40,932 nt of DNA from a virus (UHGV-2003109); one strand, 5' to 3'; shown: positions 2,792-32,313, counted from the stretch's first letter. The notes: generated by a model from the sequence alone, not told the origin. Program-made: numbers and translations.

Positions 2792-5700
2792 TCAACTGAT
2801 ACTGATACCGGCTGTAGATTTCTTCATCACAACAACAAGAAGGTCGCTGATACTGGTCGTTGGCGTCCAGTTATTAGCACCATATGAAGAAACATTGAAA
2901 GTCAGGGTGACATGGCCGTGTCCGGCAGGCATATCAATGACTGATGAAAATACCCTGCTGACATCCGTCGCGGGTTGCTGAAAGATTTCCTGTCCGTTCT
3001 TCAGTACCTGCAGCTTACAGGTTGAATACCAGTATGACTGTTGGTTGTTGCTGTTGAAGTTTTCATGCTTACCCCCACGAAACAGAACGGGGGGGACTAC
3101 TATCTGACGGTCAAAAGCCTGGTCATCGTACACAGTGACCGTTATTGTACCGCTGGCATAACTGCCATTTCTCGGAAAGGCTTTTCCCACCGTTTTGACA
3201 ATATCACCTTCAATCTGGTTAGCTGACAGTTTTCCCAGAATCCGACAGTTCTGATTAATCGTGACGTTGTTGAGCGTCCCGGAGTTCGCGTTCACGTTAC
3301 CGCTGATATCCGCATTTTTCGCAGAAAGTCGACCATCAGGTGTCAGTGAAAACGTTGGGGGATTGCCACCGCTGGTAATGGTGGGAGCCGTCAGATATTT
3401 CAGGAACACTTCGTTCATGAATATCTGATCGCCCTGCCCAACAAACATCGGCTTTGTGTTGCCATTCGCAGGATTAATCATCGCAATCCTGTCCGCCGCC
3501 AGCAGCACCTGACTCTGCATACCGTCAGGAGTATTCTCAATACCGGCACCAATACCCGCGATATAAAGGCGTCCGTCCTGCATCTGCTGCAGCTTCACAG
3601 CCCACATGCTGTTCAGGTTATTATTTGTATCAACCTGAACCTTCTGTATCTGCTGGATCGCTGCACTCTGGTCTTCCAGTTTCTTATTGACGGTCTGCGT
3701 GATTTCATTGCTGACACCCGTAATGGACGTCCTGATTTCAGCCAGGTCAGGCGCAAGCTGACCGTTATCAATCTGCGTCCACAACTCCTGAGCCAGATGG
3801 GTTTTCCCTATCTCTCCTTTGAAAAAATTCAGATAGCCGGATGCATCATCACTCGGCTGGCCAACAGCCTCCACAAATGCCGATTTGCCAACGGTGTTCA
3901 CACTGCGGATGTAAAAATAATAATCATGGCCCGGTTTGATATTGATACTGGCGGCTATCCAGTACAGCGCCGTGCCAAGATAGCGTGCTGTGGTTTCAAC
4001 CTGCCTGATATCCGCAATCCGCTTTTCCGAGAACCAGAACTCAAACTGTACCGTCGGATCATAAACCGCAAGATGCGGCGTGGCGGTTATCTGAAAATAC
4101 CCCGGTGTCAGCTCAATCTGCGACGGCGCTGCCGGTGCGGCAATCCGGAACGATACCGATGCCGGATCGCCCTGCTGCCCCCACGCATTTACTGCCCGGA
4201 CTGTCAGCCTGTAGTTCCCCAGCGCCAGTTGTGTGAAGCGGTATGTGGTTTCCGCCGTCCGGGCTGTGCTGACCAGCCGCTCACTGCCGTCATCCGCTGC
4301 CACGGTCAGGCGAAGCATGAAACTCACGCCCTTCACCACCTTCGGCGTGTCCCAGCGGGCCAGTACCTGATACTCCCCGCTGTCTGCGGTGACTTCGGCA
4401 GTCAGGTGCTGCACTGCTGGCGGCGTGACACCATTCACCGTGCCGCTCTGGTCGCCGTCAAAGTGCGCCCCGTTATCCACGATGGCTTCTTTTTCCGGTA
4501 CATGCTGCACGGCGGTGATGGCATACGTGCCGTCGTCGTTCTCACGGATACTCACGCAGCGGAACAGGCGCTGGCGCAGCGTCGGCAGCTTCAGCCCCCA
4601 CACGCTGTATCCGGCAACGCCGTCAGGAACACGGCTAACTTTCACCTTCACGCCGTCGGTGACGGACTGGACCTCCACGCTGACCGGATTGCCATTTCCG
4701 TCAACCAGGCTTATCAGCGTGGTGCCGGAGGATGGCAGCATGATTTCACGGTCGAGCGTCAGTGTCCGCGCCTGGCTGTTCACCGCCAGCACGCGCCCGC
4801 CGATGCTGATACCCGCATAGTCATCATCGCAGATTTCAATGACATCGCCCGGTACATGGCGAAGCCCTTCTGCGCCCACGCTGAAGTCCACGGTCTGCGT
4901 TTCCAGCAGCTCCGTTTTAATCAGCCACAGCCCGGCGCGGTGTGCCTGCCCCCGACTGGTACAGCCAAAGGCATCCATCTTCGTGACGTTACGACCGTAA
5001 CGGGCAATGGCCTGCGTGTCCTCCACAAGCTCTGTCGCCGTCTCCCAGCCGTTATCCGGGTCAATCCAGTTCACCTCAACGGCATTATGGCGGTCTTTCA
5101 GGGCGCTGAAGCTGTAGCGGAACGGCGCACCATCATCCGGCATCACCACATTACTGCAGTTATAGGTCCACACCTTATCCGATGGTCGGTCCTGCACGAA
5201 TGTCAGCGTCTGTCCGTTCCATACCGGCATACAGCGCATCGCCGAGCAGAAATCACTGAGCACATCCCACGCCTTACGCTGTGTGGTCAGCCAGGCATTA
5301 CAGGTGATGCGCGGCTCCGTGCCACCAAAGCCATCCGGCACCGACTGGTCGCAATTCTGGCCGATGACATACAGCGCCCATTTGTCCACATCCGCCGCAC
5401 CGAGACGTTTCCCCATGCCGTAGCGCGGATGGGTCAGCATATCCCACAGACACCAGGCCATGTTGTTGCTGTATGCTGGCTTAAACGTTCCGTCCCAGAT
5501 ACCGCTGTATTGCCGCGTCTGCGGGTTATAGTTCGACGGCACCTGCAGAATGCGCCCGCGAAGATGATAATTACGGCTCACCTGCTGACTGCCGAACTGT
5601 TCCGAGTCCACCTGCACGCCGACCAGTGCCGTGTTCGGGTAGCACTGTTTCACATCGATGATTTCGGTGTATGACGACCAGAGCGTTTTGTTCTGCAGCT

Positions 5701-6334: not shown

Positions 6335-6982
6335 TCAGCGACCAATCACCACAACCTGACCACCGTCCCCTTCGTCTGCCGTGCTGATCTCCTGAGAAAC
6401 CACGCGTGACCCCACGCGCATTTCCCCGTACAGAACAGGCAGAACATTGCCCTGGGCAACCATGTTATCCAGTGAGGAGAAATAGGTGTTCTGTTTGCCG
6501 TTATCTGTACTTGCTGCCGTGGGCGTCCTGGCTTTCGGTGCCAGCATCTGCGCCACTCCGCCCAGGATCATACTGGCCCCTGCCGCATACATGCCCGATA
6601 CAGCCGCGGCACCCAGCCAGCCCACAGGGTTCCACCATGCCACCGCAATCAGCGCCGCCCCCAGCACCACCTGAAACACACCGCCACTTTTAGCTCCCGC
6701 CAGACGCGGCACGATGTGGATCACGGCACCATTTGCCAGCGGCTCATTAAGACGGGCAGACAATTCGGTTTCACCTGCATCACGCCCGGCAATGCGTACC
6801 TGGTACCAGCCGTCGCTCAGTTTCTGACGAAACGCCGGGATCTGCATGGCCAGCGCCCGGATGGCTTCGGACCCCGTTTTCACTCGAAGGTCGATGCGGC
6901 GGCCAAATCGTTGTAAATCCCCGTAAAGGCAGATGCGTGCCATGCCCGGTGACGCCAGAGGGAGTGTGTGCGTCGCTGCCAT
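6335..6982 (-). CDS. I: Tail assembly protein I
   Basis: Lambda gpI-like sequence and position between K and J; overlaps K as in lambda. Confidence 0.9.
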   Translation of the reverse strand: MAATHTLPLASPGMARICLYGDLQRFGRRIDLRVKTGSEAIRALAMQIPAFRQKLSDGWYQVRIAGRDAGETELSARLNEPLANGAVIHIVPRLAGAKSGGVFQVVLGAALIAVAWWNPVGWLGAAAVSGMYAAGASMILGGVAQMLAPKARTPTAASTDNGKQNTYFSSLDNMVAQGNVLPVLYGEMRVGSRVVSQEISTADEGDGGQVVVIGR

Positions 6983-23869: not shown

Positions 23870-24238
23870 AATTATTACCTTTTGAAGAAATTAGCCCTTG
23901 GGCAGAATGGTCCGAAAAAAAATATCAGAGAGAAAAACCAACAAGGAAATCTCAAGAGGTACAAATAATAAAATTATAACAATGACTGCTTCAGATAAAT
24001 TTGTAACAAACCAGAACACCATTAACGCATGATTAACCACCCATAGCAAGGATTACTTTTGTAAAGAAAAACACAGCAATGAAAGAATAGCTTTATTTAT
24101 TAATAAAACGTGTCATTCTGATTAATGACCTTTTATCTTACCCTTAAGATTTCAGGAATTTTGACTCATGGAAGAGTCCTTTTTATTTAAATTTTACATT
24201 CAGCGATGTAAATGTTCCGATTTAATATTACCCTACAT

Positions 24239-30105: not shown

Positions 30106-30233
30106 CAGAATCCTTCCGGATAATTAGCTCTCCCCTTTAAGGGACCATCCCTCTTATCCCTGCGCGCTACTTAAGTATTTTTGATTCTATTCCGGCACCG
30201 TCCAGAACTTCAAACGCGTTGAAAATAAAAACA

Positions 30234-30254
30234 AAAACCCGCCGAAGCGGGTTA
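30234..30254 (-). terminator. Strong intrinsic terminator downstream of hok
   Basis: Minus-strand AACCCGCTTCGGCGGGTT followed by TTTTGTTTTTATTTT. Confidence 0.6.
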
Positions 30255-30321
30255 AGTGCGGGTGCGTTGAGGATGCCTGCCACATCAGAGGTGGCGAGGG
30301 ATTTCTCCCTCGCCGGGTCTC

Positions 30322-30477
30322 TTACTCCTCAGGTTCGTAAGCTGTGAAGACAGCGACCTCCGTCTGCCCGGTTCGGATTCGTACCTCGCAGAGGTCTTTC
30401 CTCGTTACCAGTGCCGTCACTATGACGGTTAAACAGATGACGATCAGGGCGATTAACATCGCCTTTTGCTGCTTCAT
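30322..30477 (-). CDS. hokD: Hok-family type I toxin (HokD/RelF-identical peptide)
   Basis: MKQQKAMLIALIVICLTVIVTALVTRKDLCEVRIRTGQTEVAVFTAYEPEE; AAGGAGA RBS; track ORF is an in-frame N-terminal extension. Confidence 0.9.
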   Translation of the reverse strand: MKQQKAMLIALIVICLTVIVTALVTRKDLCEVRIRTGQTEVAVFTAYEPEE

Positions 30478-30659
30478 AGCCTGCTTCTCCTTGCCTTTCG
30501 GCACGTAAGAGGCTAACCTACATGTGTCTAGCATGAAATTGGCCTCAGATTAATGTTAAGCGTCTTGCAGGACGCGTAATGTTAACTGGGGCTTTTCTCT
30601 ATCTGCCGTTGGTGTTCATGCCCGAGGCAGATAGCCTCAAGCACCCGCAGCAATTTTAC

Positions 30660-30767
30660 TTAACTCCCTCTACCTCGCCAATCAGAAAATCGCTCCATGA
30701 AAGCAACAACAAGACAATAAATTACCAGCACAGCCACAATAGCCAACACACACGTCAGAGCCAACAC
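30660..30767 (-). CDS. Candidate 35-aa hydrophobic small membrane peptide (GTG start), not in ORF track
   Basis: Minus strand AGGAGG-TTATC-GTG TTG GCT...; translation VLALTCVLAIVAVLVIYCLVVAFMERFSDWRGRGS; inverted repeat immediately downstream. Confidence 0.3.
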   Translation of the reverse strand: MLALTCVLAIVAVLVIYCLVVAFMERFSDWRGRGS

Positions 30768-30937
30768 GATAACCTCCTGTATTGGACGTATACCAATACT
30801 GATAAATATGAGACTGCCTCTTCAATGATTCAATACAACTATTGGGTGTTCATCTAAAGAATGAAATGAAGGTAAAGTGTATATTTCAGCTCAGCGAAGT
30901 TAGAACCGTATACTCTCGATACTAACTTCGCATTGTG

Positions 30938-31969
30938 CTACCAATTGATGAAGTCAGTGATGTTATCCAACCTGGTTACAGTAACTTCCCGTCCTAACAA
31001 ATATTGCCAGTATGCCTCACGGTCATTTTGTTCACCTGCACCGCTCCACTCAATTACTCTTAAATGCTTAGAGGTTAGGTAAGGTCGAATAAGCAGGTTA
31101 AGGTGTTCATCGAGGCCAGAATAACCAAACAGTATTATTTCTTCTGATTCAAATAATGCAAACTGCAAATAATCCCAGTACGTAGAAAGAACATTAGATG
31201 CTGCTATAACTGACGGTTTCCTTTTTATATGCGTTAACACTATATGTTCGCTAGGCTCATCCCTGTCAACCGTAAGTTGAGAACGTGAAAGTTTTAAGAC
31301 GGTCTCACCCTGATTAACAAATAGTGGTGAGCCATGCAAATGCAAATAATAACCAAACCTACGATTATATTTCCGTTCGAGCGCTTCGGCGGAAAATCCG
31401 TGGCCTAACATCCCATCAACCAGATACCCATCATACCCGCTGAATATATCATTATCTATGAATGAGTTGTATAATAATTTGTCATAGTTTAATGTCGCAA
31501 TATGAGTGCGTGTATTTTTTACAAATTCCACTAGCGCATTTTCGAATCTTTGCGGCAACCCTTCACCGTAATTATGCAAACTAGTTGCAACTTTGTGGAT
31601 ATAAGTGGCGGTGATTTCGGGGAAGTTTAGTCCATCGTCAGTAAGCCAATGCTCGTTTCCTTCTCCAATTTGCGCAAGAGCCTTACAATATGTGATAGCT
31701 TGGTGAAGGGTATCCAACTCATGTTCCCCTGCCGGTGGACCTTGCCGCTGAAGACAGCGTTCGATAAGTTGCTTATGGACATCGTTTAAGAAATTGGATC
31801 GATGCCAAATTTCTGCCAACGCCCTGTCTAAGGAAAAATGAGCAGGATCTAAAGCCATACCAAGACCGTTGCCGAATATTATTAATTTTCGTGCCATATA
31901 GGAGGACTCATGTTGGAATAATCTTGAGTAGCGTAACGCGATACGCCGCAGTTTGGAAGTAATATACAT
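30938..31969 (-). CDS. SIR2-like (SIR2_2 / DHS-like NAD-binding) stand-alone protein; candidate defence NADase
   Basis: Motifs LIIFGNGLGMALD (Gly-rich N-terminus), ATLNYDKLL (conserved Asn) and YLHLHGS (conserved His), then ILFGYSGLDEH; AT-rich gene; start at 31969 or 31897. Confidence 0.65.
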   Translation of the reverse strand: MYITSKLRRIALRYSRLFQHESSYMARKLIIFGNGLGMALDPAHFSLDRALAEIWHRSNFLNDVHKQLIERCLQRQGPPAGEHELDTLHQAITYCKALAQIGEGNEHWLTDDGLNFPEITATYIHKVATSLHNYGEGLPQRFENALVEFVKNTRTHIATLNYDKLLYNSFIDNDIFSGYDGYLVDGMLGHGFSAEALERKYNRRFGYYLHLHGSPLFVNQGETVLKLSRSQLTVDRDEPSEHIVLTHIKRKPSVIAASNVLSTYWDYLQFALFESEEIILFGYSGLDEHLNLLIRPYLTSKHLRVIEWSGAGEQNDREAYWQYLLGREVTVTRLDNITDFINW

Positions 31970-32313
31970 TCCGTTTGATTACACTCGATATTACAGACTT
32001 GCATGCAAAGAAATCCAAGCTGTTAGGTAAATAGAGACCGCAGAGGAAAGTGATATAGTCTATAAAAACCAACGAATAGCGGCATGTCTTCTGCGACCTC
32101 CATTTACCCAAATAGCACTTATCTAGTAAAATTCAATGATGTATTGCATAGTATTTCGTATGAATTGATATAGATAAGAATCAGTCTTAATTCATTAGCA
32201 AATATTGAAACTCAAAATGTCTGTTTTTGATACAAAGCTGACAACCAGACCAGTTCTAGCCATGTGCCACCAAAATGTCAATTCATATCTGAAGTAATGC
32301 TCTTTAATTTCGT

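Follow-up and report, generated by a model that had tools for sequence, protein, structure and literature searches.

A divergent, C-terminally extended allele of a probable inner-membrane microprotein gene of Escherichia and Shigella lambdoid prophages

Regulatory small inner-membrane proteins of E. coli include MgtS, PmrR, KdpF, and AcrZ, which have 31, 29, 29, and 49 aa, respectively. Small hydrophobic proteins are also known as toxins, i.e., the Hok/Gef type I toxins (PF01848, mok/sok). Relatives of the small open reading frame (ORF) described here are already catalogued in two omics studies, but the family has never been characterized, and the present copy is a new, atypical member. Table S4 of Fesenko et al. 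2024 (PMC11188072) includes the ortholog in E. coli BL21 (VLVLKCTLAIVAVMAIYCLVIVLMDHLSD; NC_012971.2, 1591437..1591524). This ortholog had 13 retapamulin TIS reads (fraction 1), which is a low signal, and 38 RPF reads with a coverage of 0.90 (PMC11188072). In the same study it was placed in the predicted-coding Entero67K set as cluster Escherichia_98807, with a dN/dS of 0.46 (PMC11188072). A second relative, named A2 here, is the novel gene XECs145 of E. coli O157:H7 Sakai (Huecker et al. 2017, PMC5597208). In LB it showed an RNA RPKM of 79, a RIBOseq RPKM of 346, a ribosomal coverage value (RCV) of 4.35, and a coverage of 0.99, and its product was predicted to be an inner-membrane protein and classified as 'real' (PMC5597208). 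Ribosome profiling had been proposed as a check of expression, and these published data for the two relatives support translation.

The 29-aa ORF is sometimes named 'membrane protein' or 'conserved hypothetical protein' in GenBank (ACT39199.1, REL606/BL21), and A2 is widely annotated as a hypothetical protein. No functional study of any family member was found in the literature, the peptide strings were not found in the main text of papers, and the ORFs upstream of hok were not discussed in a preprint on Hok diversity. Small membrane proteins from UPEC Ribo-seq, e.g., SMP3, were considered as relatives and found to be unrelated, SMP3 being DUF6404.

The stretch of DNA analyzed here, i.e., the window, comprises 40,932 nt of a virus (UHGV-2003109). 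Features are on its minus strand unless stated otherwise. The small ORF occupies 30767..30660 and consists of 35 codons and a TAA stop. By sequence inspection, the GTG start codon was located at 30767..30765 and the stop codon at 30662..30660. The encoded peptide is fM-LALTCVLAIVAVLVIYCLVVAFMERFSDWRGRGS, and the full product is (f)MLALTCVLAIVAVLVIYCLVVAFMERFSDWRGRGS. A Shine-Dalgarno (SD) sequence, AGGAGG, lies at 30778..30773 with a 5-nt spacer (TTATC) to the start codon. The first 29 codons (30681..30767; MLVLKCALAIAAVMAIYCLAVVLMDRLSD) are the part homologous to the family, in which alignment and hydrophobicity predict a single transmembrane (TM) helix.

An earlier note on this DNA, made without database searches, had pointed out this ORF, and its description was largely accurate. 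AGGAGG, 5 nt, GTG, and a 35-codon open frame on the minus strand were confirmed at 30778..30660. The ORF was called unannotated, and every RefSeq record inspected has no gene at its position. It was placed just upstream of hok, and its stop codon precedes the start of the hok mRNA (30646) by 14 nt. The surrounding AT-rich island is also real, with a GC content of 0.34-0.44 across approximately 30600-32300 against 0.50-0.55 in the flanks. As for the single TM helix with a short charged tail, the helix was borne out, whereas the tail, WRGRGS, proved to be the product of a haplotype-specific 11-nt deletion. The likely reading is that the window carries a divergent allele, extended at its C-terminus, of a real gene, which encodes a single-pass inner-membrane microprotein of about 29 residues in lambdoid prophages of Escherichia and Shigella.

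Sites with AGGAGG followed at 4-9 nt by a start codon are found eight times in the 40.9-kb window. Four of them head long genes, and the small ORF at 30767..30660 is the sole short TM-like ORF among the eight. Its maximum 19-residue Kyte-Doolittle mean is 3.13, compared with 2.70 for the common allele of the family and 3.07 for the neighboring Hok, and a mean of at least 2.5 is reached by 2 of the 346 window ORFs of 25-60 aa. Because such start sites and such hydrophobicity are both rare in the window, the small ORF is more than a chance frame. The other small ORF of comparable hydrophobicity (23891..24049) encodes 52 aa and has a TTG start and no SD.

By homology blocks, the small ORF was assigned to a unit at 30660..30847, named module A, which comprises a promoter-like block, a short 5' UTR, the small ORF, and the -35 element of hok. 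The left edge, at approximately 30847, is a mosaic junction with variable cargo, and the right edge, at approximately 30670-30666, is the junction with the hok cassette. A candidate sigma-70 promoter of the small ORF was recognized by conservation at 30805..30833, i.e., TTGAAT (30833..30828), a 17-nt spacer, and CATATT (30810..30805). In most lineages, including the 76%-identical copy on the Shigella virulence plasmid pINV, it is kept as TTGA(A/G)(T/G)-17-CATATT. It was not reported by the promoter scanner because it matches just 8 of the 12 consensus positions. The block is absent from BL21, where the junction lies approximately 25 nt before the GTG, so upstream read-through must serve that copy.

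The hok promoter was found by the promoter scan at 30653..30681, with the -35 element TTGGCG (30681..30676), a 17-nt spacer, and the -10 element TAAAAT (30658..30653), and its position fits the 5' end of the leader. The hok mRNA leader and sok region was identified at 30472..30646 (Rfam RF01794, 115.3 bits, E = 3.5e-27), and the hok CDS, of 51 aa, at 30322..30477; homologous loci are annotated HokD. From the mapped leader end and the promoter coordinates, it follows that the small ORF runs through the -35 element and terminates before the hok +1. The hok cassettes, including those of hokW-type loci, share homology only from the -10 element onward (approximately 30666). The -35 element is brought by each upstream module, i.e., TTGGCG in module A and TTTGCG or TTGCGG in B-type loci (the B family is described below). 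Since the cassette homology starts at -10 and loci without hok keep module A until just past -35, the recombination junction is placed in the spacer of the hok promoter (window approximately 30666-30681; loci L130, L176, and L103). Transcripts that start upstream of the small ORF must cross the hok promoter.

A sub-threshold Rfam match to isrK (25.7 bits, E = 0.004) was seen at 30232..30313. It coincides with the 3' end and terminator of the hok mRNA (hairpin 30253..30236) and probably just reflects this terminator. The genome of E. coli KSC1031 (L001, 4560..5630) was the sole fetched genome with 100% identity to the window across the ORF region. In this strain, an IS1202-like ISEsa1 element is inserted directly downstream, at the position of hok in the window.

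Thousands of E. coli genomes contain a sequence approximately 85% identical to 30847..30560, and in each case a prophage hokD-type gene lies downstream of it. In an alignment of eight loci, the SD, the GTG, and the ORF are conserved, and outside the window allele the ORF has 29 codons and a TGA stop, which precedes the hok -35 element by a few nucleotides. This family TGA after codon 29 is missing in the window, where six extra codons lead to the TAA. IMG/VR was scanned with a pattern from the small ORF and another from the hok leader; of 196 hok-anchored loci examined, 100 have the module. Automatic parsing read the start codon in 91 of these, always as GTG, and the remaining copies also showed GTG when the printed sequences were inspected. 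In the sampled IMG/VR loci, the SD is AGGAGG, AGGAGA, or GGGAGG and is fixed exactly 5 nt upstream of the start, a spacing also kept in pINV. The ORF is intact in 98 of the 100 module loci, and the other two are frameshifted by a shared 2-nt deletion.

Substitution patterns point in the same direction between diverged lineages. The ratio pN/pS, with permutation P in brackets, was 0.16 (0.0017) for the common allele against that of locus L118, 0.21 (0.002) for L118 against the allele of HannyBb and BL21, 0.40 (0.0018) for the common allele and 0.30 (0.00025) for L118 against the 34-aa A2, and 0.26 (0.004) for the common allele and 0.19 (0.001) for L118 against the pINV copy. Judged from these comparisons, the frame of the family is clearly kept by purifying selection when diverged lineages are compared, the signal between lineages other than that of the window being summarized as pN/pS 0.16-0.33 with P approximately 0.0003-0.004. 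In the shallow common clade, third codon positions hold just a slight excess of the variable sites (11/10/17). All other frames have stops in at least one lineage or show no coding pattern. A frame lost in homologous loci had been named in the earlier note as a ground for dismissing the ORF. The first 29 codons are kept there, with a pattern of synonymous and conservative substitutions, and the ORF is not refuted on this ground.

A plus-strand ORF of 92 aa at 30579..30857, antisense to the small ORF and annotated in pieces in phage HannyBb, was rejected as a coding candidate, with stops in L118 and A2 and no coding signature. Its counterpart in Sakai, XECs166, runs antisense to the hok leader and was reported as a novel gene with translation (PMC5597208, S10 Table). 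As this frame is unconserved in the present comparisons, the XECs166 signal may reflect Sok-region RNA, not protein.

The full module was detected in 1,835 of 5,426 complete E. coli genomes, i.e., approximately one third. A search of species-representative genomes with a back-translated motif recovered the module from E. albertii, E. ruysiae, S. flexneri, and MAGs into which E. coli-like contigs had been binned, and from no other genome; matches in Clostridium were in an unrelated frame and were discarded as chance. Profiles of Pfam, NCBIfam, PHROGs, and PADLOC gave noise-level TM matches at most. A phmmer search with the 35-aa peptide against 1.84 billion representatives returned nothing at E <= 0.001, the query being too short and hydrophobic to be informative, and a protein search with a 40-aa read-through variant gave one close relative.

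The small ORF is not tied to hok. Eleven IMG/VR loci and one S. flexneri chromosome lack hok and keep the promoter-like block with an intact ORF. Homology in these loci stops just past the stop codon and the -35 element, and a different gene follows. In turn, 12 hok loci retain only the last approximately seven codons of the small ORF, and the ORF is therefore dispensable for hok. On these arrangements, the small ORF does not depend on hok. The pINV copy, present in 124 Shigella plasmids in PLSDB, is an intact 29-aa ORF in which GTG has changed to ATG and the same TGA is kept. There a hok-type promoter comes after the ORF, followed by only approximately 75 nt of the hok leader, and the copy lies approximately 290 nt upstream of icsP/sopA. 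In pCP301 (L238) it is located at 3072..3161, with the region downstream extending to 3452. It is near a region reported to be needed for the H-NS silencing of icsP (PMC5192488).

Upstream of the small ORF lies a hypervariable cargo slot. In the window, the cargo is a SIR2-family gene at 30938..31969 (RefSeq 'SIR2 family protein', with weak SIR2 matches in PADLOC). Across 95 loci, at least 33 unrelated cargo clusters were found directly upstream of the small ORF, and the window-type SIR2 gene accounts for 4 of the 95. Elsewhere the slot holds, for example, a DUF4209-type protein, a GNAT-like acetyltransferase, or an MFS-type transporter-like protein, and many of the cargo genes have no known function. 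The slot is bounded by the replication-region gene DUF977 and the small ORF (e.g., L007, L019, L034, L047, and L068), and in BL21 DUF977 abuts the small ORF with no cargo between them. From the diversity of the cargo and the cargo-free BL21 locus, the small ORF is the fixed right-hand border of this slot and not a partner of SIR2. The slot looks like a defence or moron hotspot of lambdoid prophages; in L068, for example, it holds a cassette with adenosine-deaminase-like, HAM1-like, and SIR2-like genes. Relative to the window, L231 (E. albertii) and L079 lack approximately 100 nt after a related SIR2 gene, which leaves a distance of 70 nt between the SIR2 stop and the GTG of the small ORF, here a normal allele of 29 aa. 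By these E. albertii-type loci, SIR2 cargo occurs with two different small-ORF alleles. Directly after the SIR2 stop of the window, a 10-bp inverted repeat without a U-tract was observed at 30894..30931 (GCGAAGTTAG ... CTAACTTCGC, 18-nt loop). It belongs to the 3' flank of the cargo and is partly deleted in E. albertii.

Two further kinds of small hydrophobic ORF were seen upstream of hok. The A2 relative (MSDDISLAMEGALAVIAVVGVYCLVVFLMDRLGN) has 34 aa, an ATG start, and the SD AAGGAGG 5 nt upstream, and its TM core, ALA[IV]xAVx[AG][IV]YCL[AV]V[VF]LMDRL, is homologous to the family. The A2 stop lies 76 nt before the hok +1, and a 22-nt palindrome is located in between. In L176 this palindrome is perfect (6741..6762; CGATATGGGAATTCCCATATCG), with the A2 stop on one side and the hok promoter on the other. 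It also occurs in other contexts upstream of hok without A2, and it could be an operator or a hairpin. Family B (MTWPEALTTVGIAMAVALVVYSICRWG) is an unrelated hydrophobic ORF of 27 aa directly upstream of the hok promoter in 27 IMG/VR loci (L130, 2296..2379; L023, from 7627). The start codon of this ORF either follows a strong SD or overlaps the stop codon of a DUF551-like gene (ATGA); the ORF has no family match, and its length is under the reach of most sORF screens. A tandem order of B, A, and hok recurs, i.e., in L176 with B2 at 6509..6592 and A2 at 6628..6732, and also in L017, L023, L069, and L106. The gap between B2 and A2 is 35 nt in A2 loci, and the gap between B and A is 150-160 nt in four loci with diverged A. 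This tandem may be the ancestral layout behind the version with the cargo slot. That family A, family B, and the tandem cooperate with Hok at the membrane, as modulators or immunity factors that tune Hok killing in induction or abortive infection, is a long shot. If true, the prophage hok locus would be a three-part membrane module and more than an RNA-controlled toxin.

The allele of the window departs from the family in its end and in its core. An 11-nt deletion was located by the eight-locus alignment at 30673..30686 (TCTG[ATTGATTTCAT]ATTGGCGAGG to TCTGATTGGCGAGG). It lies between ATTG direct repeats (TCTG[ATTGATTTCAT]ATTGGCG in other loci) and removes the family TGA; codons 30-35 and the TAA (30660..30680) are therefore a lineage-specific read-through into the hok promoter, within its -35 element and spacer, and have no family counterpart. 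No haplotype other than that with SIR2 (L001, L091, and L104) was seen to have the 35-aa allele, and the SIR2 haplotype is rare, i.e., 16 of 5,426 complete E. coli genomes. The core shares 17 of 29 residues with the common allele (11 of 28 residues changed), and its identity to three family alleles is 59-62% over 29 aligned residues. The motif LAI.AV..IYCL is present, and L2, L4, C6, L8, A9, I10, A12, V13, I16, Y17, C18, L19, M24, S28, and D29 are invariant in the window and the three alleles. All replacements are hydrophobic-conservative, and those unique to the window at otherwise conserved positions are K5T, A15V, L23F, and L27F. From the loss of K5 and these several unique replacements, constraint on the allele is possibly relaxed. 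The lost N-terminal Lys and the gained C-terminal Arg may also amount to a shifted balance of the charges that set topology, which would make the allele a functional variant.

Whether this copy still works is the point on which the alternatives come closest. There is some chance, although we lean against it, that the family gene is real but that its copy in the window is in decay or non-functional, with a 35-aa product that has no function. Against other alleles, its pN/pS is 0.45-0.56 (P 0.04-0.31), and against the two closest prophage alleles, i.e., the common one (0.56, P = 0.31) and L118 (0.49, P = 0.21), its substitutions are indistinguishable from neutral. The unique changes, the lost stop codon, and the rarity of the haplotype fit decay, as does the absence of the exact 35-aa protein from a collection of 15 billion proteins. 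However, the frame is still open behind a perfect SD and GTG, the replacements keep hydrophobicity, the comparisons with pINV (P = 0.04) and A2 (P = 0.065) both lean to constraint, and the exchange of charges could be a coherent change of topology. It is far less probable that the ORF is incidental throughout the family and that the sequence is kept as cis-acting DNA or RNA, i.e., as an upstream element of the hok promoter or a flank for recombination of the cargo slot. The module does abut the hok promoter and supplies its -35 element, it is the conserved flank of a recombination hotspot, and the third-position excess in the common clade is weak. A cis element would, however, not account for the synonymous-rich divergence between lineages, for an ORF that stays intact where hok is absent or truncated, for the start codons of pINV (GTG to ATG) and A2 (ATG with its own strong SD), or for the ribosome-profiling signals of relatives. 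The RNA fold of the small-ORF region is also unremarkable (z = 0.21), and no RNA structure signal was seen.

Two roles suggested in the earlier note concern the neighbors of the ORF. One was a second toxin, which was left unsupported by the analysis: that the small ORF is a type I-like membrane toxin beside hok, which kills or depolarizes cells when expressed, is unlikely. The peptide is small, very hydrophobic, and single-helix, with a hydropathy like that of Hok (3.13 against 3.07), it adjoins a bona fide type I toxin locus, and the surrounding prophage region has many defence and abortive-infection genes. The rest of the evidence disfavors a toxin, i.e., the translated Sakai relative, the lack of an antisense promoter or sequestering leader in the searches, and the lack of a toxin-family match in Pfam, NCBIfam, PHROGs, or PADLOC. 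Hok/Gef (PF01848) gave no match to the small ORF even at E <= 10 (Pfam, NCBIfam). No promoter-like site was found on the plus strand at 30150..31050 by a consensus scan, which could miss a weak promoter, and the search for an antisense RNA gave one sub-threshold Rfam match (17.9 bits, E = 0.26). Over the small ORF, Rfam detects no structured RNA, just the neighboring hok leader (30646..30472); no stable leader structure was predicted, and the SD is unsequestered. Unlike tightly repressed type I toxins, the Sakai relative is highly translated in exponential growth, as its RCV and RIBOseq RPKM indicate. The other suggestion was a membrane partner for the SIR2-like protein. Such a role, or that of an effector of this neighbor, is the least credible of all and as a general rule is already refuted. 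The SIR2 gene does adjoin the small ORF on the same strand in the window, a related SIR2 gene precedes it in E. albertii, and an unrelated SIR2-like gene precedes it in L068. However, the many unrelated cargoes and the cargo-free BL21 locus speak against it, the module is present in 1,835 genomes and the SIR2 haplotype in 16, and the junction at the left edge of module A is mosaic.

We therefore return to the reading of a microprotein gene. The small ORF is very probably a real gene, and its product is probably translated. Transcription would come from its own weak sigma-70 promoter (TTGAAT-17-CATATT) and/or from upstream read-through, and translation from the GTG would give a single-pass peptide that is inserted in the inner membrane. 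Conserved small or polar positions of the helix, i.e., A9, A12, A/G15, Y17, and C18, suggest a specific helix-helix contact over non-specific membrane damage. By pure inference from these positions, the peptide might contact another membrane protein and would not be a lytic toxin. Module A, directly upstream of the hok/sok cassette, at the same time supplies the -35 element of the hok promoter. In the window, the 11-nt deletion removed the TGA, so that the protein gains WRGRGS and the ORF ends within the hok promoter. Several observations stand against this reading, i.e., substitutions of the window allele that are indistinguishable from neutral against its closest prophage alleles, the weak third-position excess, the dispensability of the ORF, the weak promoter match, and the low TIS signal in BL21.

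A conserved gene for a small membrane protein, omitted by standard annotation, is carried by approximately one third of complete E. coli genomes and by the Shigella virulence plasmid. It is a clear case for annotation, i.e., a real gene under the usual size cutoffs. Knowledge of its role would add a widespread member to the short list of characterized bacterial membrane microproteins and could bear on how the expression of prophage hok loci and of neighboring defence genes is understood.

Compared with known systems, the small ORF resembles the Hok/Gef type I toxins in its small size, in a very hydrophobic N-terminal TM helix, and in its place in the same prophage region on the same strand. 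Hok/Gef proteins have approximately 50 aa and a periplasmic Cys-containing domain, whereas the small ORF has 29-35 aa and no such domain. It also has no mok-like coupling ORF, no long structured mRNA, and no detected antisense promoter. Cluster Escherichia_98807 (PMC11188072) shares with the window ORF the locus, the SD-5 nt-GTG arrangement, the 29-codon TM core, and the place upstream of hokD. The window allele differs from it in having 35 aa, in lacking the family TGA, and in sharing 17 of 29 residues with the common form. XECs145, i.e., A2 (PMC5597208), has a homologous TM core, likewise precedes a prophage hok, is predicted to be in the inner membrane, and is translated, but it has an ATG start, a polar N-terminal extension of 11 residues, and a second small TM ORF in tandem before it. 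Nothing about the small ORF is categorically new, and it is notable for its spread, its missing annotation, and its position at a cargo hotspot and atop the hok promoter. With MgtS, PmrR, KdpF, and AcrZ it shares a similar size, a single TM helix, minimal tails, and translation that is tolerated in growth, as seen for the family in the Sakai relative. There is no homology to these proteins, which belong to the core genome, whereas the small ORF is prophage-borne. By this likeness, the small ORF would most plausibly work as proteins of the MgtS, PmrR, KdpF, and AcrZ type do.
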